Origin: a virus
Taxonomy: Duplodnaviria > Heunggongvirae > Uroviricota > Caudoviricetes
Strand: one strand, 5' to 3'
Virus record (IMG/VR): IMGVR_UViG_2872703611_000002
DNA length: 53,140 bases
The position numbers were made by a program. Each line of letters starts with the position of its first letter. The first letter of the stretch is position 1. Shown piece after piece: positions 36,201 to 45,200 of the stretch.

Positions 36201-39200
36201 CCAGCACGACAACCTCCTGTATTGGACGTACACCAGTCCTGATAAATATGAGGCTGTCTCATCATTGATGAGATACAACTATTGGGTATAGTTTCTGTGA
36301 TTTTGTTCTGTAGAAATGGAACACAACAACCAGTCACCACCAGTACTTCTTTAAATACGCCAAGTCCGACGCAAGCTAACCTTCTAGTCCGCTTTGAGCG
36401 AGAAGCGGAAGTATGAAACTTGTTCTCACCACCGATGAAGCATTACAAACAATGCAGTTAGTTTATCAACGGGCAGGATCAGGGCGTACTCTCAAGCGGT
36501 TTAAGATTGATAACCTCAGGTACATTCATCTTGCCACGTTTCATATAGCGTATTTGCGACAGAGTTCATGTGAAGAAACACCGACTACGAGGATGATATT
36601 CATGTTGTATTGTTCGGGAAATCACTTCTTCATATGGAACCCTCATCACACTTACAAAACCATTATTAACATAGCTTAAGTGTTAATCAAAATTGAGCCA
36701 TTCACATTACATTAGGTAAGGTATCTTACTAAAAATATTGTAATGTTTTGTTTTTAAAGATAAAGATTTCAGGTTGAAAACCAAAAATTTTTAGTTAAAA
36801 ATATTTATGGTGTATGTAAAAAATGATAAGGTAGTGATAAGACATAAGTTTGTAAAACACATGTTAAATTTCAATGCTGATGAAAAAGCTTAGCGTTAAT
36901 CAAAACAGGAGCAAGAAGATTGAAAGTTATTAGCTTAATCAATATGAAAGGTGGCGTTGGTAAGTCAACATTGGCTACCAATATTGCTAATCATCTTTCA
37001 GATAAACTTGGGCAAAAAATATTATTAATAGATATCGACCCACAATTTAACGCAACGCAATGTGTAATGGATACAAGCAAATATGTTGCACATATGAAAA
37101 GCGGAGGCGATAGCATATGTGATATTTTTTATAGTTCAAAAATTCGACTATCTACAATGACTGGTCCTTTAGTTAACACACCTAAAGAATTAGCCGATAT
37201 AACACCAATTCAATTAAATGATAATTTTCACATTGTTCCCGGAAGCCTTGGGCTATATAAAATTGAAATGAAACCAGGAGAAGGGATAGAAAACAAGCTT
37301 AGACGCTTTCTTAAAATCCATGAAAATGACTATGATTATGTCATAATTGATACCCCACCAACCCCATCAGTTTGGATGTCCAGCGCATTAATTGCATCTG
37401 ATTATTACCTCATTCCAGCCAAACCCGATCCTCTTTCGATCACTGGTATCGATCTATTAGATAGCATTATAAATGAGAAGAGAGAAAATTTCGATCTTAA
37501 GATTGAATGTGCGGGCATAGTTTTTAATATGGTTGAAGGTAATAGTAATTTATATGAGGAAAGTCTTCGTTACTTCAATAATCAAAAACGTTGGCGTAAT
37601 AAGATCTTTAAATCATATTTGAGCAAACGTACTGAGTTGGCAAGAAATCAAACAAGAGGCTTATTTATTAACAATTTAACGGATGAGGATATGAAGTTTT
37701 CGCTGTCTAAAATTACTGACGAACTTCTCTCTAGAGTAGGTGACTTATGACTGACAAAAAAAATAACTCAAAAGAAATTAAGCAACTGTTAAACTTTTTA
37801 GAGGAGTTTTCCTTTATTTCAAAAAAATTATCAAGAATCAACTTTATTGAATTACTTCAAGATAGTTATACTGATAATTTAGAAGTTAACGAAAGAAATT
37901 CAAAGTCCAAAAAAAATGATATTAAAGGTTTCCTTGTTGGGTATCTTCCGAGGATTTTATTAGACAAAGATCTCTTCCAAAAAAATAAAGATATAGATGA
38001 TTTTGCACGCATGTTAGGTATCGAAATCAGCAGGCCTGAAAAAAGATCTAGAGAGGAAATGATCGGCATAATCGTGTGTGACGTTCACGAGAAAAACTCA
38101 TCCGATTTAGGTAAGGCTTATAATATTATCAATTCAATGTCAAATAACCCTCTAGTTTTGAGTAGAATAAAAGAGAGGAAGAACCTTTCTAGCGCTCAAA
38201 ATGAGATATATGACTGGAATGAAGTTATAAAAGATATATTCAATAAGGACTAACAATGTCGAGAGAAGTAAACAGCGATTTCACTGAGTTAGTTACTTAT
38301 TTCTCTGAATATAAATTAAAAAATGTTTTCGAGAATATTAACTCAAGAGGGAAAATAAGCATGATACATAAGAGATATTATTCTTTTATGTGCCTTGTTT
38401 ACTGTTTGTATCATTTCTCCAAGGAGAAAATAGACGCCAACTCATTGGAGCGATTGCAAGAAGCTTCATCTGACCTTGGTACAGCTATGTTTATGGTTAT
38501 AAATGGTGCATACAAACCAGCAAATCTAATGATGCGAAGTTATATTGAAAATTCTTTAAAATCAATCGGTTGCTTACTAGATCCTTCAATACTTGAAGAA
38601 AAATCATTGTTTAAGGTAATTGAACAAACTGGGGAACATCCTGTCTTCAAAAAAAATCCTCTACTACATGAAACTTTAAAAGCTGAATACTCTTCGTTAT
38701 GCAGTCACGTACATACAGCTACTGTAAAAGAAATGGCTCACATAAAAGCTTTAAATGTTTTTCCCGAAATAGACTTGGTTAAAATAGATAATATTTCGAA
38801 GGTGATTGATAAGGTGGTTAAGACTATGATATCAACTATCATAAGAATTTTTCCTGATGTTTTCTTTTCCTTTGCACCTGAGTATCGAGAAAAAATCCTC
38901 CTTAGCTTAACCTCTGCACAACGAGCCTCACTTCATTCCTTAAGTGATTAACTAACAAGTATGACATAAAAACTATCCTATTGTGATAGTTTTTATGTTC
39001 ATTAAGATGACTATATCAGGAATTATTGCCGAATTTTAATTTTCATATTGATTTTACTATCTCTCACCAACTCTTGTAAGTATCCTTCCGCCACAAGCGG
39101 ACCATGTGCATTTAAATATCTGACCTAACGTGCCGTAACGCCGCAATGTCCGCTTCTGGCACAAAGCAGACGCCCACTCTCACGCGAATGCTTTGCCCTT

Positions 39201-42200: not shown

Positions 42201-45200
42201 AAGATAATGCATCACAGGTTCGGCAACGCCAAAGAACATCAGGCCGATCCCCATCCCTGCCGAAAAAAGCATCGCGAACCAGGAGTGGTAGCTGAAATCA
42301 GGCTGCGCATGGTCTGGGCCCAGCTTTATATCACCGTAACGTGAGAGTCCAAGGAACGTGACGCTCAGTAAAATCAGGGCCACAGCAAGTATGTAGAACC
42401 AGCTGGCATTCGTGAAGATTTGTTGCTGAAGTAGTTTAAAATTTTTGTCGGCGACATCCGGGAATACGGCGGCAAAGGCGACAAGAAGGAAAATTAGCAA
42501 AGCAGATGTAAAGAATACCGCTTTGTTAACCTGGCTTGTAGACTTCTTTGGGGTTGTATCATTTTCACTCATAATCATTTATTCCATTAATTAAATCCGC
42601 ACTGGATAGAAGGTACTACCTCTCACAGAGTAGCAAAGTTCAACTGGCTATGCGGGATTAATCGGAATGCATGGTGGAATGAGTGCCGATACAAATCATC
42701 CTATATTCTAAGGAGTTTTAAGTTACTCAGCCTGCCAATTACTGGGGCATTTAATTTGTATGATCTGTATCAAAGCTGGGATATAAGTTAAGTGAAGTAT
42801 ATTAGGCACGAATTACCAGCGTCTGCTCTTGGCACAAAGCGGACTGATCTTACCCAGCAATAGTGGACACGCGGCTAAGTGAGTAAACTCTCAGTCAGAG
42901 GTGACTCACATGACAAAAACAGTATCAACCAGTAAAAAACCCCGTAAACAGCATTCGCCTGAATTTCGCAGTGAAGCCCTGAAGCTTGCTGAACGCATCG
43001 GTGTTACTGCCGCAGCCCGTGAACTCAGCCTGTATGAATCACAACTCTACAACTGGCGCAGTAAACAGCAAAATCAGCAGACGTCTTCTGAACGTGAACT
43101 GGAGATGTCTACCGAGATTGCACGTCTCAAACGCCAGCTGGCAGAACGGGATGAAGAGCTGGCTATCCTCCAAAAGGCCGCGACATACTTCGCGAAGCGC
43201 CTGAAATGAAGTATGTCTTTATTGAAAAACATCAGGCTGAGTTCAGCATCAAAGCAATGTGCCGCGTGCTCCGGGTGGCCCGCAGCGGCTGGTATACGTG
43301 GTGTCAGCGGCGGACAAGGATAAGCACGCGTCAGCAGTTCCGCCAACACTGCGACAGCGTTGTCCTCGCGGCTTTTACCCGGTCAAAACAGCGTTACGGT
43401 GCCCCACGCCTGACGGATGAACTGCGTGCTCAGGGTTACCCCTTTAACGTAAAAACCGTGGCGGCAAGCCTGCGCCGTCAGGGACTGAGGGCAAAGGCCT
43501 CCCGGAAGTTCAGCCCGGTCAGCTACCGCGCACACGGCCTGCCTGTGTCAGAAAATCTGTTGGAGCAGGATTTTTACGCCAGTGGCCCGAACCAGAAGTG
43601 GGCAGGAGACATCACGTACTTACGTACAGATGAAGGCTGGCTGTATCTGGCAGTGGTCATTGACCTGTGGTCACGTGCCGTTATTGGCTGGTCAATGTCG
43701 CCACGCATGACGGCGCAACTGGCCTGCGATGCCCTGCAGATGGCGCTGTGGCGGCGTAAGAGGCCCCGGAACGTTATCGTTCACACGGACCGTGGAGGCC
43801 AGTACTGTTCAGCAGATTATCAGGCGCAACTGAAGCGGCATAATCTGCGTGGAAGTATGAGCGCAAAAGGTTGCTGCTACGATAATGCCTGCGTGGAAAG
43901 CTTCTTTCATTCGCTGAAAGTGGAATGTATCCATGGAGAACACTTTATCAGCCGGGAAATAATGCGGGCAACGGTGTTTAATTATATCGAATGTGATTAC
44001 AATCGGTGGCGGCGGCACAGTTGGTGTGGCGGCCTCAGTCCGGAACAATTTGAAAACAAGAACCTCGCTTAGGCCTGTGTCCATATTACGTGGGTAGGAT
44101 CAGACAACCACGCTAGCTCTACCCTGTGCCACAAAATGTCAATTTGCATCTGAACTAATGCACTTTAATCTCGTCACTTCAATAAATACCGAACATCCCC
44201 CTGATAAAACGACAATATGCGCTGCATAACTTCGCTCTTCCGGCACTCGCGACAGATTATGTTTAGGCGACTGTCGTAGCGACGTATTTCTCCGTCAGGT
44301 AATGACCAGATAAGGTCCGGATCAACCACAACCGGTTTCTTCAGCTTTGCCCTCGATAATTTTTTGCGGGCATTTTGCCAGTCTTTACGAGCCTGTTCAG
44401 ACGGGAATAACCCGTAGCCAGAATTGTATACATCGCCACTGGCAACCAGCTCTCTGGCCAGAACGCTCATCAGATATCTTGTTGCCCCAGTTTTAGCTTC
44501 CAGTTGTCGTAACGTCTCGCGCCCACTCTGGCGTACGAGTTCAAGAACCTGCCCTTTAATTTTTTCCCGCTCTTCTTGTGTAAAAACTTTTGCCACAAGC
44601 CCTCCTGAAAATTACCTCATGACCAGAAATTAACACTTACCCCCTGAAGCCCGGCGGAATTTCGTTATCCGGTTCAGAAATATGATTCACACAACGCTGG
44701 TTGTTCGTGCCGCTTACCGGGAGCAACCAGGGGTTCTCAAAATTCCGGTCCGGTCCAAAAAACGTCGTCGCTCGCTGAACAAATTCCGTTCCCGTTTTCC
44801 CGGTAGCCGCCAAGTATCTTGCGTAACGCCTCACGCCATCCAGCATGGCCTCTGGTGGCACCCCCTCGCGTAATCTGGCCTTCCAGGCACTGAAAGCGGA
44901 TTTCTTCGGGTTTGCCCCAGCACGCAACGGGTACTCCCGCCAGACCTGTTCGAACACATCCGGATAATCCACTCGTCCCACAGACTGCCCGGTGTTTTCC
45001 GGGACTACCCGATCGGCTTCCCGCTGAATGGCGGAATCGGCTTCAGGCTGCTGCAGTTGGTGTGATTGCTCCGCCCTTGCGGTCATCACCTGCTGCACAG
45101 CGCCCGAATCGGCTTTCAGCGCATACGCTGAATCGGCTTCCGGTGTCGTGCCTGCTGGCTGACCAAGATTGACGGTCTGAACATCCCCTGCCTGGTTCGT

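Follow-up and report, generated by a model that had tools for sequence, protein, structure and literature searches.

The pdif/xrs modules of Acinetobacter carry adaptive genes, including relBE-type toxin-antitoxin pairs, between ~28-bp sites that consist of two arms and a short centre. The flanking sites are often inverted and their centres divergent, plasmids that are otherwise identical differ only between such sites, and exchange has been proposed to occur via cointegration at one compatible pair of sites and resolution at another (PMC11705084). The CGTC super-family of repetitive extragenic palindromes (REPs) is cross-phylum, mainly alphaproteobacterial and without a dedicated transposase (PMC3733652). 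Here, we describe a short palindromic element in a Qin/Rac-type lambdoid prophage, which lies in a 53,140-nt stretch of caudoviral DNA (IMG/VR record IMGVR_UViG_2872703611_000002; the whole stretch is referred to as the window). We demonstrate that copies of this element are the exact exchange points of interchangeable modules, a junction role that is well supported. Based on comparative analysis, we also give about an even chance to the proposal that the sites serve as crossover points in a system of cassette exchange, which would work like the pdif/xrs modules by means of a putative enzyme. The three sites in the window are:

36387–36410, plus strand: A-type site, GTCCGCTT-TGAGCGAG-AAGCGGAA, the hokD-side boundary of the prophage cargo slot, from the family scan.

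39144–39175, plus strand: B-type site 1 (B1), 32 nt, CAATGTCCGCTT-CTGGCACA-AAGCAGACGCCC.

42817–42844, plus strand: B-type site 2 (B2), CAGCGTCTGCTC-TTGGCACA-AAGCGGAC.

The cargo slot holds two modules in series, in the order hokD, A-type site, a ParA-like trio of genes, B1, DUF2254 and BCCT transporter genes (the BCCT module), B2, IS3 and the DUF977 gene. An earlier, sequence-only reading of this DNA had pointed to two 26-mers, GTCCGCTTCTGGCACAAAGCAGACGC at 39148–39173 and GCGTCTGCTCTTGGCACAAAGCGGAC at 42819–42844. Both are present, and comparison of the two bears out the description of a core in direct orientation with the outer arms placed crosswise and inverted. A simpler description is that each site is an imperfect palindrome in which 12-nt arms surround an 8-nt asymmetric centre. 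The B-type consensus over 301 distinct contexts is CAATGTCCGCTT/YTGGCACA/AAGCGGACATTG, and the palindrome can alternatively be read as inverted arms of 11–13 nt around an asymmetric centre of 6–8 nt. The centres of B1 and B2 have the same orientation, the arm variants ...TGTCCGCTT and ...GCGTCTGCT are placed crosswise, and full identity between the two sites extends over 11 nt; the window contains exactly two occurrences of the 11-mer TGGCACAAAGC, both on the plus strand. The A-type site has the same arms around a different centre, TGAGCGAG, which matches the reverse-complemented B centre at 6 of 8 positions, i.e., with two differences. Collections were searched with the degenerate 22-nt pattern CYGCTNYTGGCACAAAGCRGNC, for which arithmetic estimates give ~1e-6 expected occurrences in the window and ~9 chance matches in 596 Gb. 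At least 120 stretches in genome contigs (species-dereplicated) and at least 120 in viral contigs match this pattern exactly, more than 240 in all, and, thus, the site pair is real and non-random. Within its own 7-kb region the pair is not outstanding, because a scan of the find_repeats type returns other 26–28-nt inverted pairs at 71–73%; the core with one mismatch is not enriched in this region.

Several lines of evidence place the exchange of modules at these sites. First, in alignments of the window with plasmids, homology begins and ends at the sites. The 3.7-kb BCCT module is present in 1370 Escherichia coli genomes and many plasmids, and the boundaries of these matches, at query positions 238 and 3945/3950, are the sites. 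In ~700 plasmids, the relB-relE flank is shared only from the site inward, and beyond the site lies unrelated DNA, i.e., a CDF transporter gene, flxA-ydfV, hypothetical genes or the BCCT module. Likewise, in ~4000 E. coli genomes the shared DUF977 flank starts at the outer edge of the left arm of the site. Second, on the hokD side, homology among prophages with different cargo (loci L129 and L130 and the window; the cargoes encode an FRG-domain protein, a DUF4209 protein and the ParA trio) stops at the A site, and the prophages compared differ only between A and B. Third, the motif joins different cargoes and flanks: in a junction graph of 140 sites, the DUF977 flank is joined to at least 17 clusters of left flanks, the DUF2254 end has six left contexts and the BCCT-upstream end has three right contexts. 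In all cases in this graph, the left flank keeps its left arm together with the first base of the centre, and the right flank keeps its right arm together with the R position of that arm. Accordingly, the left arm of B1 is part of the ParA-trio module and its right arm part of the BCCT module, with the left arm and first centre base following the left flank and the right arm following the DUF2254 flank in six contexts, while the right arm of B2 is prophage backbone. The sequence-only reading had noted neither this backbone arm nor the A-type site. Because the arm variants track their own flanks, every exchange point lies inside the invariant GCTnnTGGCACAAAGC. The centre is invariant within each site type, which is the pattern of core sites that exchange in a shared centre. 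The proposal that the 26-mers are recombination or inversion sites, or the ends of a small mobile unit, therefore holds in part: the sites are recombination junctions that bound a discrete mobile unit, but no recombinase is linked to them and, because both sites are direct, there is no evidence for inversion of the DUF2254 and BCCT segment.

The conservation of the element across the 301 contexts points in the same direction. Mirrored positions of the two arms do not covary, with Watson–Crick pairs at the expected frequency at all variable pairs and mutual information of at most 0.08 bit; the half-sites thus assort independently, as expected if they are swapped at the centre. Conservation is asymmetric, with free variation at the two bases that precede TGGCAC and fixed bases at the two positions after it, and the centre is conserved as strongly as the arms. 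The head of the arm is ATGTC in 250 of 452 cases and ACGTC in 74 of 452. Judged by this pattern, the element resembles a site defined by its sequence, the halves of which assort independently, rather than a stem maintained by pairing. The same pattern bears on a different mechanism, in which an HUH endonuclease (Rep-like, or similar to the REP-associated tyrosine transposases, RAYTs) nicks the TGGCAC loop of the extruded hairpin and rejoins at the next identical loop, so that the DNA between two direct sites leaves as a single-stranded circle, giving the same hybrid arms. An exchange point in the loop or centre, a loop sequence that is conserved and asymmetric, and the direct orientation of B1 and B2, which fits initiation and termination, are all compatible with such an enzyme, and repeats mobilised by HUH enzymes typically proliferate in a REP-like way and form doublets (PMC3733652). 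However, the stem is not kept by covariation, the predicted fold of B1 is weak (−3 to −5 kcal/mol, z ~0), there is no GTAG tag, and no HUH or RAYT gene was noticed near any site in a search that was not exhaustive. We therefore consider an HUH mechanism improbable.

The arrangement of the sites was compared over 1.37 Mb of enteric and viral loci, for which a shuffle of the whole gives ~1 match. Sites are arranged as A+ B+ in 58 loci, as B+ alone in 41 and as A+ B+ B+, the type found in the window, in eight, and longer arrays also occur; the median distance from A to B is 1.6 kb. Because the A centre approximates the reverse complement of the B centre, A...cargo...B amounts to cargo between inverted sites with divergent centres. 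The orientation of the cargo relative to A→B is not fixed, which means that the element acts on the level of DNA. B-A tandem doublets with 14–18 nt between the sites exist in 12 distinct forms and can fold into one long imperfect hairpin. The L170/L252 contig contains an array of at least eight sites with single-gene cassettes of ~0.6 kb between doublets. In L252 (IMGVR_UViG_3300031419_000378, 285–8152), one of these cassettes encodes a cytidine-deaminase-like protein and a HumD/UmuD-like gene adjoins the array; the array also abuts genes for 335-aa and 707-aa tyrosine recombinases in an arrangement like that of TnpA/TnpB of Tn554, with the larger gene ending 5 nt from a B site. In L198, L223 and L244, we observed a hybrid-centre site, GTCAGCTCTGAGCCAGTGGCGGAC (CTGGCTCA on the other strand), that combines position 3 of the B type with position 6 of the A type; such a centre would be expected as the product of an inverted A x B exchange or as an evolutionary intermediate. 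In two unrelated environmental contigs, tRNA genes lie within ~250 nt of a junction site (L027, 3087–3159; L097, 111–184), and in L097 the DNA directly beside the tRNA gene holds three sites around a MatE gene and an SDR and TetR gene pair. The window itself also contains what resembles a B-type site with its centre mostly deleted:

39086–39103, plus strand: truncated B-like remnant, TTCCGCCACAAGCGGAC, 45 nt upstream of B1, read directly.

This remnant may be the decayed partner of a former doublet. A second decayed partner, TGTGCCAC with weak arms, is found ~19 nt downstream of the backbone B site (window ~44125–44140) and also in L129.

How does this element relate to the systems described previously? 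It shares with the pdif/xrs modules that A is approximately an inverted B with two differences in the centre, that cargo lies between the two (58 plus 8 loci), and that homology breaks at the centres. It differs in its sequence, GCTTT-TGGCAC-AAAGC, which is unrelated to dif and by eye has neither the ATAA-centre-TTAT motif (PMC11705084) nor XerC/XerD arms like those of dif, cer and psi. It also differs in its hosts, which are enteric prophages, plasmids and islands as well as many other Proteobacteria, and in the location of the BCCT module between direct sites of the same centre. Similarly, the element resembles integrons in having arrays of short, mostly single-gene cassettes that are split by ~66-nt composite palindromes, i.e., the B-A doublets, with fixed mismatches, and in having a recombination site that is divided between neighbouring cassettes. 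By contrast, the consensus lacks the RYYYAAC/GTTRRRY core sites, no intI or attI/Pc platform is adjacent, and no integron integrase matched above the cut-off; moreover, exchange takes place at the centre of each 24-nt palindrome and not at an outer R' box, and the orientation of the cargo is free. A further comparison is with the lox sites of Cre-type enzymes (loxP, and SloxP and SloxM1 of SCre), which also have inverted arms around an 8-bp asymmetric spacer. SloxM1, CTCGTGTCCGATA-ACTGTAAT-TATCGGACACGAG, and the element have TGTCCG in common in the same register (PMC3082901). However, the arms agree at only 6 of 13 positions, the sites have no Cre-like gene beside them, and lox sites are single plasmid- or phage-resolution sites whereas the element forms dispersed module boundaries. 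The TGTCCG match is a lead toward Cre-type enzymes rather than a test of them. The sfx sites of the Rci shufflon recombinase have a 7-bp spacer, GTGCCAA, and a conserved 12-bp right arm; the reverse-complemented B centre holds GTGCCA(A/G), and its arms bear no relation to the sfx arm. A sigma-54 promoter (TGGCAC-N5-TTGC), CIRCE, parS, dif, hix and res were rejected on sequence by eye. Literature searches with the literal sequences (TGGCACAAAGC, its reverse complement, and ATGTCCGC plus GCGGACAT) returned primer and CRISPR noise only, and no description of the element was found in the searchable literature, the coverage of which is incomplete. Altogether, the element is pdif-like and partly integron-like in its working but fails the defining sequence features of both, and there is a substantial chance that it represents a distinct cassette-exchange system.

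In such a system, a trans-acting site-specific enzyme would bind the arms and exchange strands in the centre. By site geometry this would most likely be a tyrosine recombinase: inverted arms of ~11–13 bp around a 6–8-bp asymmetric centre are what its core sites consist of, and what is found here. Two routes can be envisaged. In the first, a circle would enter a single B site, giving rise to a direct B1/B2 pair with matched inner arms. In the second, modules would cointegrate at one site type and resolve at the other, as in the model proposed for the pdif/xrs cassettes of Acinetobacter. The inner arms of the BCCT module share the variant GCGTCTGCT, which is found in 2 of 452 half-site contexts, and joining the halves of this module circle-wise gives two more symmetric sites; two direct B sites with GCGTCTGCT as shared inner arms fit a circle with one symmetric site entering the backbone B site. 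The junction of this circle would be expected to read CAGCGTCTGCTC-TTGGCACA-AAGCAGACGCCC (or GCGTCTGCTC-TTGGCACA-AAGCAGACGC), and the empty site after excision would be expected to read CAATGTCCGCTT-CTGGCACA-AAGCGGACAACC.

Several observations weigh against an active exchange system of this type. No cognate recombinase was found and none is recurrent near the sites, the alpha- and betaproteobacterial sites have ordinary metabolic and transport genes as neighbours, and the prophage integrases are located 7–9 kb from the sites. Individual candidates also failed: the plasmid tyrosine recombinase WP_000600827 is Xer-like, lies beside a Tn3-family remnant and is absent from the prophage contexts, and the 335-aa and 707-aa recombinase pair at the L170/L252 array has homologues in L253 and L255 that are without sites. 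Excision, which the sequence-only reading had suggested could be traced in reads or assemblies, left no trace in the collections: synthetic joins representing the empty site and the circle junction had no contiguous match in plasmids, E. coli genomes, viral contigs or metagenome contigs. Moreover, in a comparison of 35 B-B and 55 A-B modules, the match between inner arms did not exceed that between outer arms. We therefore rejected matched inner arms as a general rule, and the signature of an integrated circle is specific to the BCCT module. Finally, some soil Alphaproteobacteria carry the sequence in clusters and in very high numbers, with tandem copies of three centre types that often come straight after stop codons. 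This behaviour is REP-like and would be dangerous if the site were active in recombination. Among other candidates, the 200-aa integrase in the cargo of L001 is unrelated to WP_000600827, and all-against-all clustering of 2266 neighbouring open reading frames (ORFs) yielded ABC substrate-binding and housekeeping-type families only, and no recombinase or RAYT.

The distribution of the element differs between groups of hosts. Of 5426 E. coli genomes, 3715 carry the site, with a median of one and a maximum of six copies per genome, and enteric copies in general are low in number and located on mobile DNA, i.e., prophages, plasmids and islands. Further hosts are Pantoea, Mixta, Rahnella, Serratia, Klebsiella, Citrobacter, Nitrosomonadaceae and one gammaproteobacterial metagenome-assembled genome (MAG), and the element is especially frequent in MAGs of soil Xanthobacteraceae and Hyphomicrobiales. 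In soil Alphaproteobacteria, up to three tandem palindromes share one stem and have the centres TTGGCACA, TCGGGGGTA and TTGACCCA, with the TGGCAC type first. The 120 listed loci contain 477 hairpins, up to 18 per 8 kb and mostly in soil Alphaproteobacteria; alphaproteobacterial copies often lie just past the stop codons of (paralogous) ABC substrate-binding genes, and 21 of 135 sites in alphaproteobacterial contigs are inside long ORFs. Triplets in L021, L030, L036 and other alphaproteobacterial loci have the stem ATGTCCGCT...AGCGGACAT and partly conserved spacers of ~19 nt (..GTTGCACTGCAC..), and in-frame triplets read as peptides such as MSAIGTKRT or MSAFGGKAD, which could seed spurious ORF calls.

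Because of this abundance and clustering, the main rival to the cassette-exchange reading takes the element for REP-like palindromes or REP doublets that form hairpins (REPINs) and have no recombination role of their own. They would be selfish or structural intergenic hairpins that, by lying between genes on many mobile elements, offer short homology for Red/RecT-type or hairpin-promoted illegitimate joining of unrelated DNA. Tandem clusters, a shared stem with different loops, the frequent position downstream of ABC substrate-binding genes and the REPIN-like folding of B-A doublets all agree with it, as do the lack of an enzyme linked to the sites and of excision products in the collections searched; in addition, the CGTC REPs are a documented case of palindromic repeat super-families that span phyla and lack a dedicated transposase (PMC3733652). 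Like REPs, bacterial interspersed mosaic elements (BIMEs) and REPINs, the element is a short intergenic palindrome that often lies 3' of genes, is numerous and clustered in some genomes and forms hairpins as inverted doublets. It differs from REPs in that it is non-repetitive in E. coli and confined to mobile DNA, yet placed at module boundaries in a fixed A...B order and orientation, a boundary role that is not described for REPs. It has no GTAG tag, and no RAYT gene was seen among the neighbouring ORFs. A centre conserved like the arms, asymmetric sequence-specific conservation and the absence of mirrored covariation argue against selection on a stem. The uninterrupted identity of partner sites is only 11–15 nt. 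Efficient RecA recombination needs roughly 20–30 bp, compared with the 11 nt of identity between B1 and B2. Lastly, unless a conserved protein reads the site, it is difficult to see why a 28-nt sequence should be identical in different proteobacterial classes. The element could nevertheless be one of the CGTC families. On balance, we regard the REP/REPIN reading as doubtful, although by no means negligible. The possibility that the motif is an ordinary, widespread REP-like element without a link to segment boundaries is thus borne out in its first half, since the motif is widespread and REP-like, but not in its second, since the link to boundaries is very strong in enteric mobile elements.

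Returning to the cassette-exchange reading, it can be widened to a system that extends across Proteobacteria and their mobile elements, with one arm sequence (GTCYGCT/AGCRGAC), several mutually incompatible centres and a putative site-specific enzyme. In this wider form, the centres would be TGGCACA and GAGCGAG, with GGGGGT and TGACCC in Alphaproteobacteria. We advance this extension tentatively and at clearly less than even probability. If it is true, the system would drive the turnover of cargo at prophage defence hotspots, in toxin-antitoxin and transporter modules of plasmids and in genomic islands. In function it would parallel integrons and pdif modules, and its natural "heterospecific sites" would permit recombinase-mediated cassette exchange.

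The modules bounded by the sites in the window, and the conserved backbone flank next to them, are:

36920–38951, plus strand: cargo module 1, between A and B1, encoding a ParA-like ATPase (36920–37750) and two proteins without a family match (37747–38253 and 38256–38951), by Pfam/NCBIfam.

39234–42578, minus strand: cargo module 2, encoding a DUF2254 membrane protein (39234–40526; PF10011, 1.6e-92) and a BCCT/BetT-like transporter (40575–42578; PF02028, 3.3e-199).

44174–44596, minus strand: DUF977 gene of the prophage replication region (PF06163, 2.2e-28), the conserved backbone flank of the B site.

The DUF2254 and BCCT proteins are the only ones encoded in module 2, and no transposase is among them. 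The position of the sites relative to these genes, with B1 60 nt past the DUF2254 stop codon and B2 ~240 nt before the BCCT start codon, and the many copies elsewhere that follow stop codons, are what an ordinary regulatory or terminator hairpin with an incidental boundary position would show. Formally, the inner arms could also be the inverted repeats, and the centres the direct repeats, of a small inverted-repeat transposon with an 8-bp target duplication. However, no T-tract follows B1, B2 or the L129 site on either strand, as would be expected for an intrinsic terminator, and no Rfam family matches the hairpins, near which Rfam finds only tRNAs. The orientation of cargo relative to A→B is free, the supposed duplication YTGGCACA does not differ between sites or between taxa, and the module would be a transposon without a transposase. 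The junction graph largely refutes these two possibilities, which we consider very improbable.

The second site is interrupted by an insertion sequence:

42845–44102, plus strand: IS3, 1258 bp, in the outer right arm of B2, with the 3-bp target duplication GAC (42842–42844 and 44103–44105).

RefSeq annotates the identical DNA as "IS3-like element IS3 family transposase". The sequence-only reading had placed IS3 exactly at the edge of the second copy; its left end does begin at 42845, but the flanking GAC duplication shows that the element lies within the outer right arm of B2 (AAGCGGAC|AACC) and not merely beside the site. The arm is broken by IS3 and resumes as AACC at 44106–44109. When IS3 is taken out, ...TTGGCACAAAGCGGAC-AACC-ACGCTAGC... 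is re-formed, and the resulting AAGCGGACAACCACGCTAGC is identical to the backbone site of L129. We suggest that IS3 inserted later, cutting the outer right arm of B2, and that this may have frozen the BCCT module. In sister strains (records H1–H6; L003, 10011–13623), IS100 lies inside the 4.1-kb segment and an IS66-family element has entered the IS3 copy, making the locus an IS sink. Targeting of the palindrome by IS3-family elements was dropped as an explanation, because the rve ORFs of L082, L084 and L087 are not next to sites.

The prophage has the gene order Q, RusA, DUF968, hokD, cargo, DUF977, and replication and immunity genes, with the integrase at 51842–53137. The ParA-like trio is not restricted to this backbone: the same trio, bracketed by A...B, is present in a CP4-like island of L128 (4777–6808), where a type I restriction-modification system and a YeeP-like GTPase gene are neighbours, and is thus found in two unrelated backbones. 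PADLOC gives only a weak P-loop match for the trio. Its location in a slot for defence cargo suggests an uncharacterised function in defence or exclusion. Directly after the last gene of the trio, at 38964–38998, a perfect 14-bp inverted repeat (ACATAAAAACTATC/GATAGTTTTTATGT) with a 7-nt loop is distinct from the junction element and looks like the terminator of the module. Other cargoes of the slot include the candidate defence genes PDC-S15 and PDC-S39 and, in Pantoea, a pair of SIR2/PDC-S25 and ApeA-HEPN. In the K-12-type Qin prophage (L257, 3307–3612), the annotated ydfV ORF overlies a B-type site between flxA and relB that carries no repeat annotation; in K-12, flxA-ydfV is an A...B-bracketed cassette and relBE-hokD starts exactly at the right arm of the site. 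More than 1200 Klebsiella plasmids (H69–H92) carry a DUF2254 and BetT pair that is ~90% identical to that of the window. Because this similarity ends short of the junction sites, the pair also exists with different boundaries or with no such boundaries.

Current accounts of the precise swapping of defence genes, toxin-antitoxin pairs and transporters at hotspots of prophages, satellites, plasmids and islands call on homologous recombination in the flanks. With a short junction element that is defined by its sequence, the mechanism of swapping would become directly testable. The element described here is common to lambdoid prophages, CP4-like islands, IncF/IncHI2-type plasmids and environmental Proteobacteria, and would supply a simple sequence tag for cargo slots and for new defence systems. 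On a conservative reading, a class-spanning, REP-like repeat family serves as the seam of mosaic mobile elements. If the enzyme exists, the element may be part of a new recombinase/site pair with naturally orthogonal spacers.

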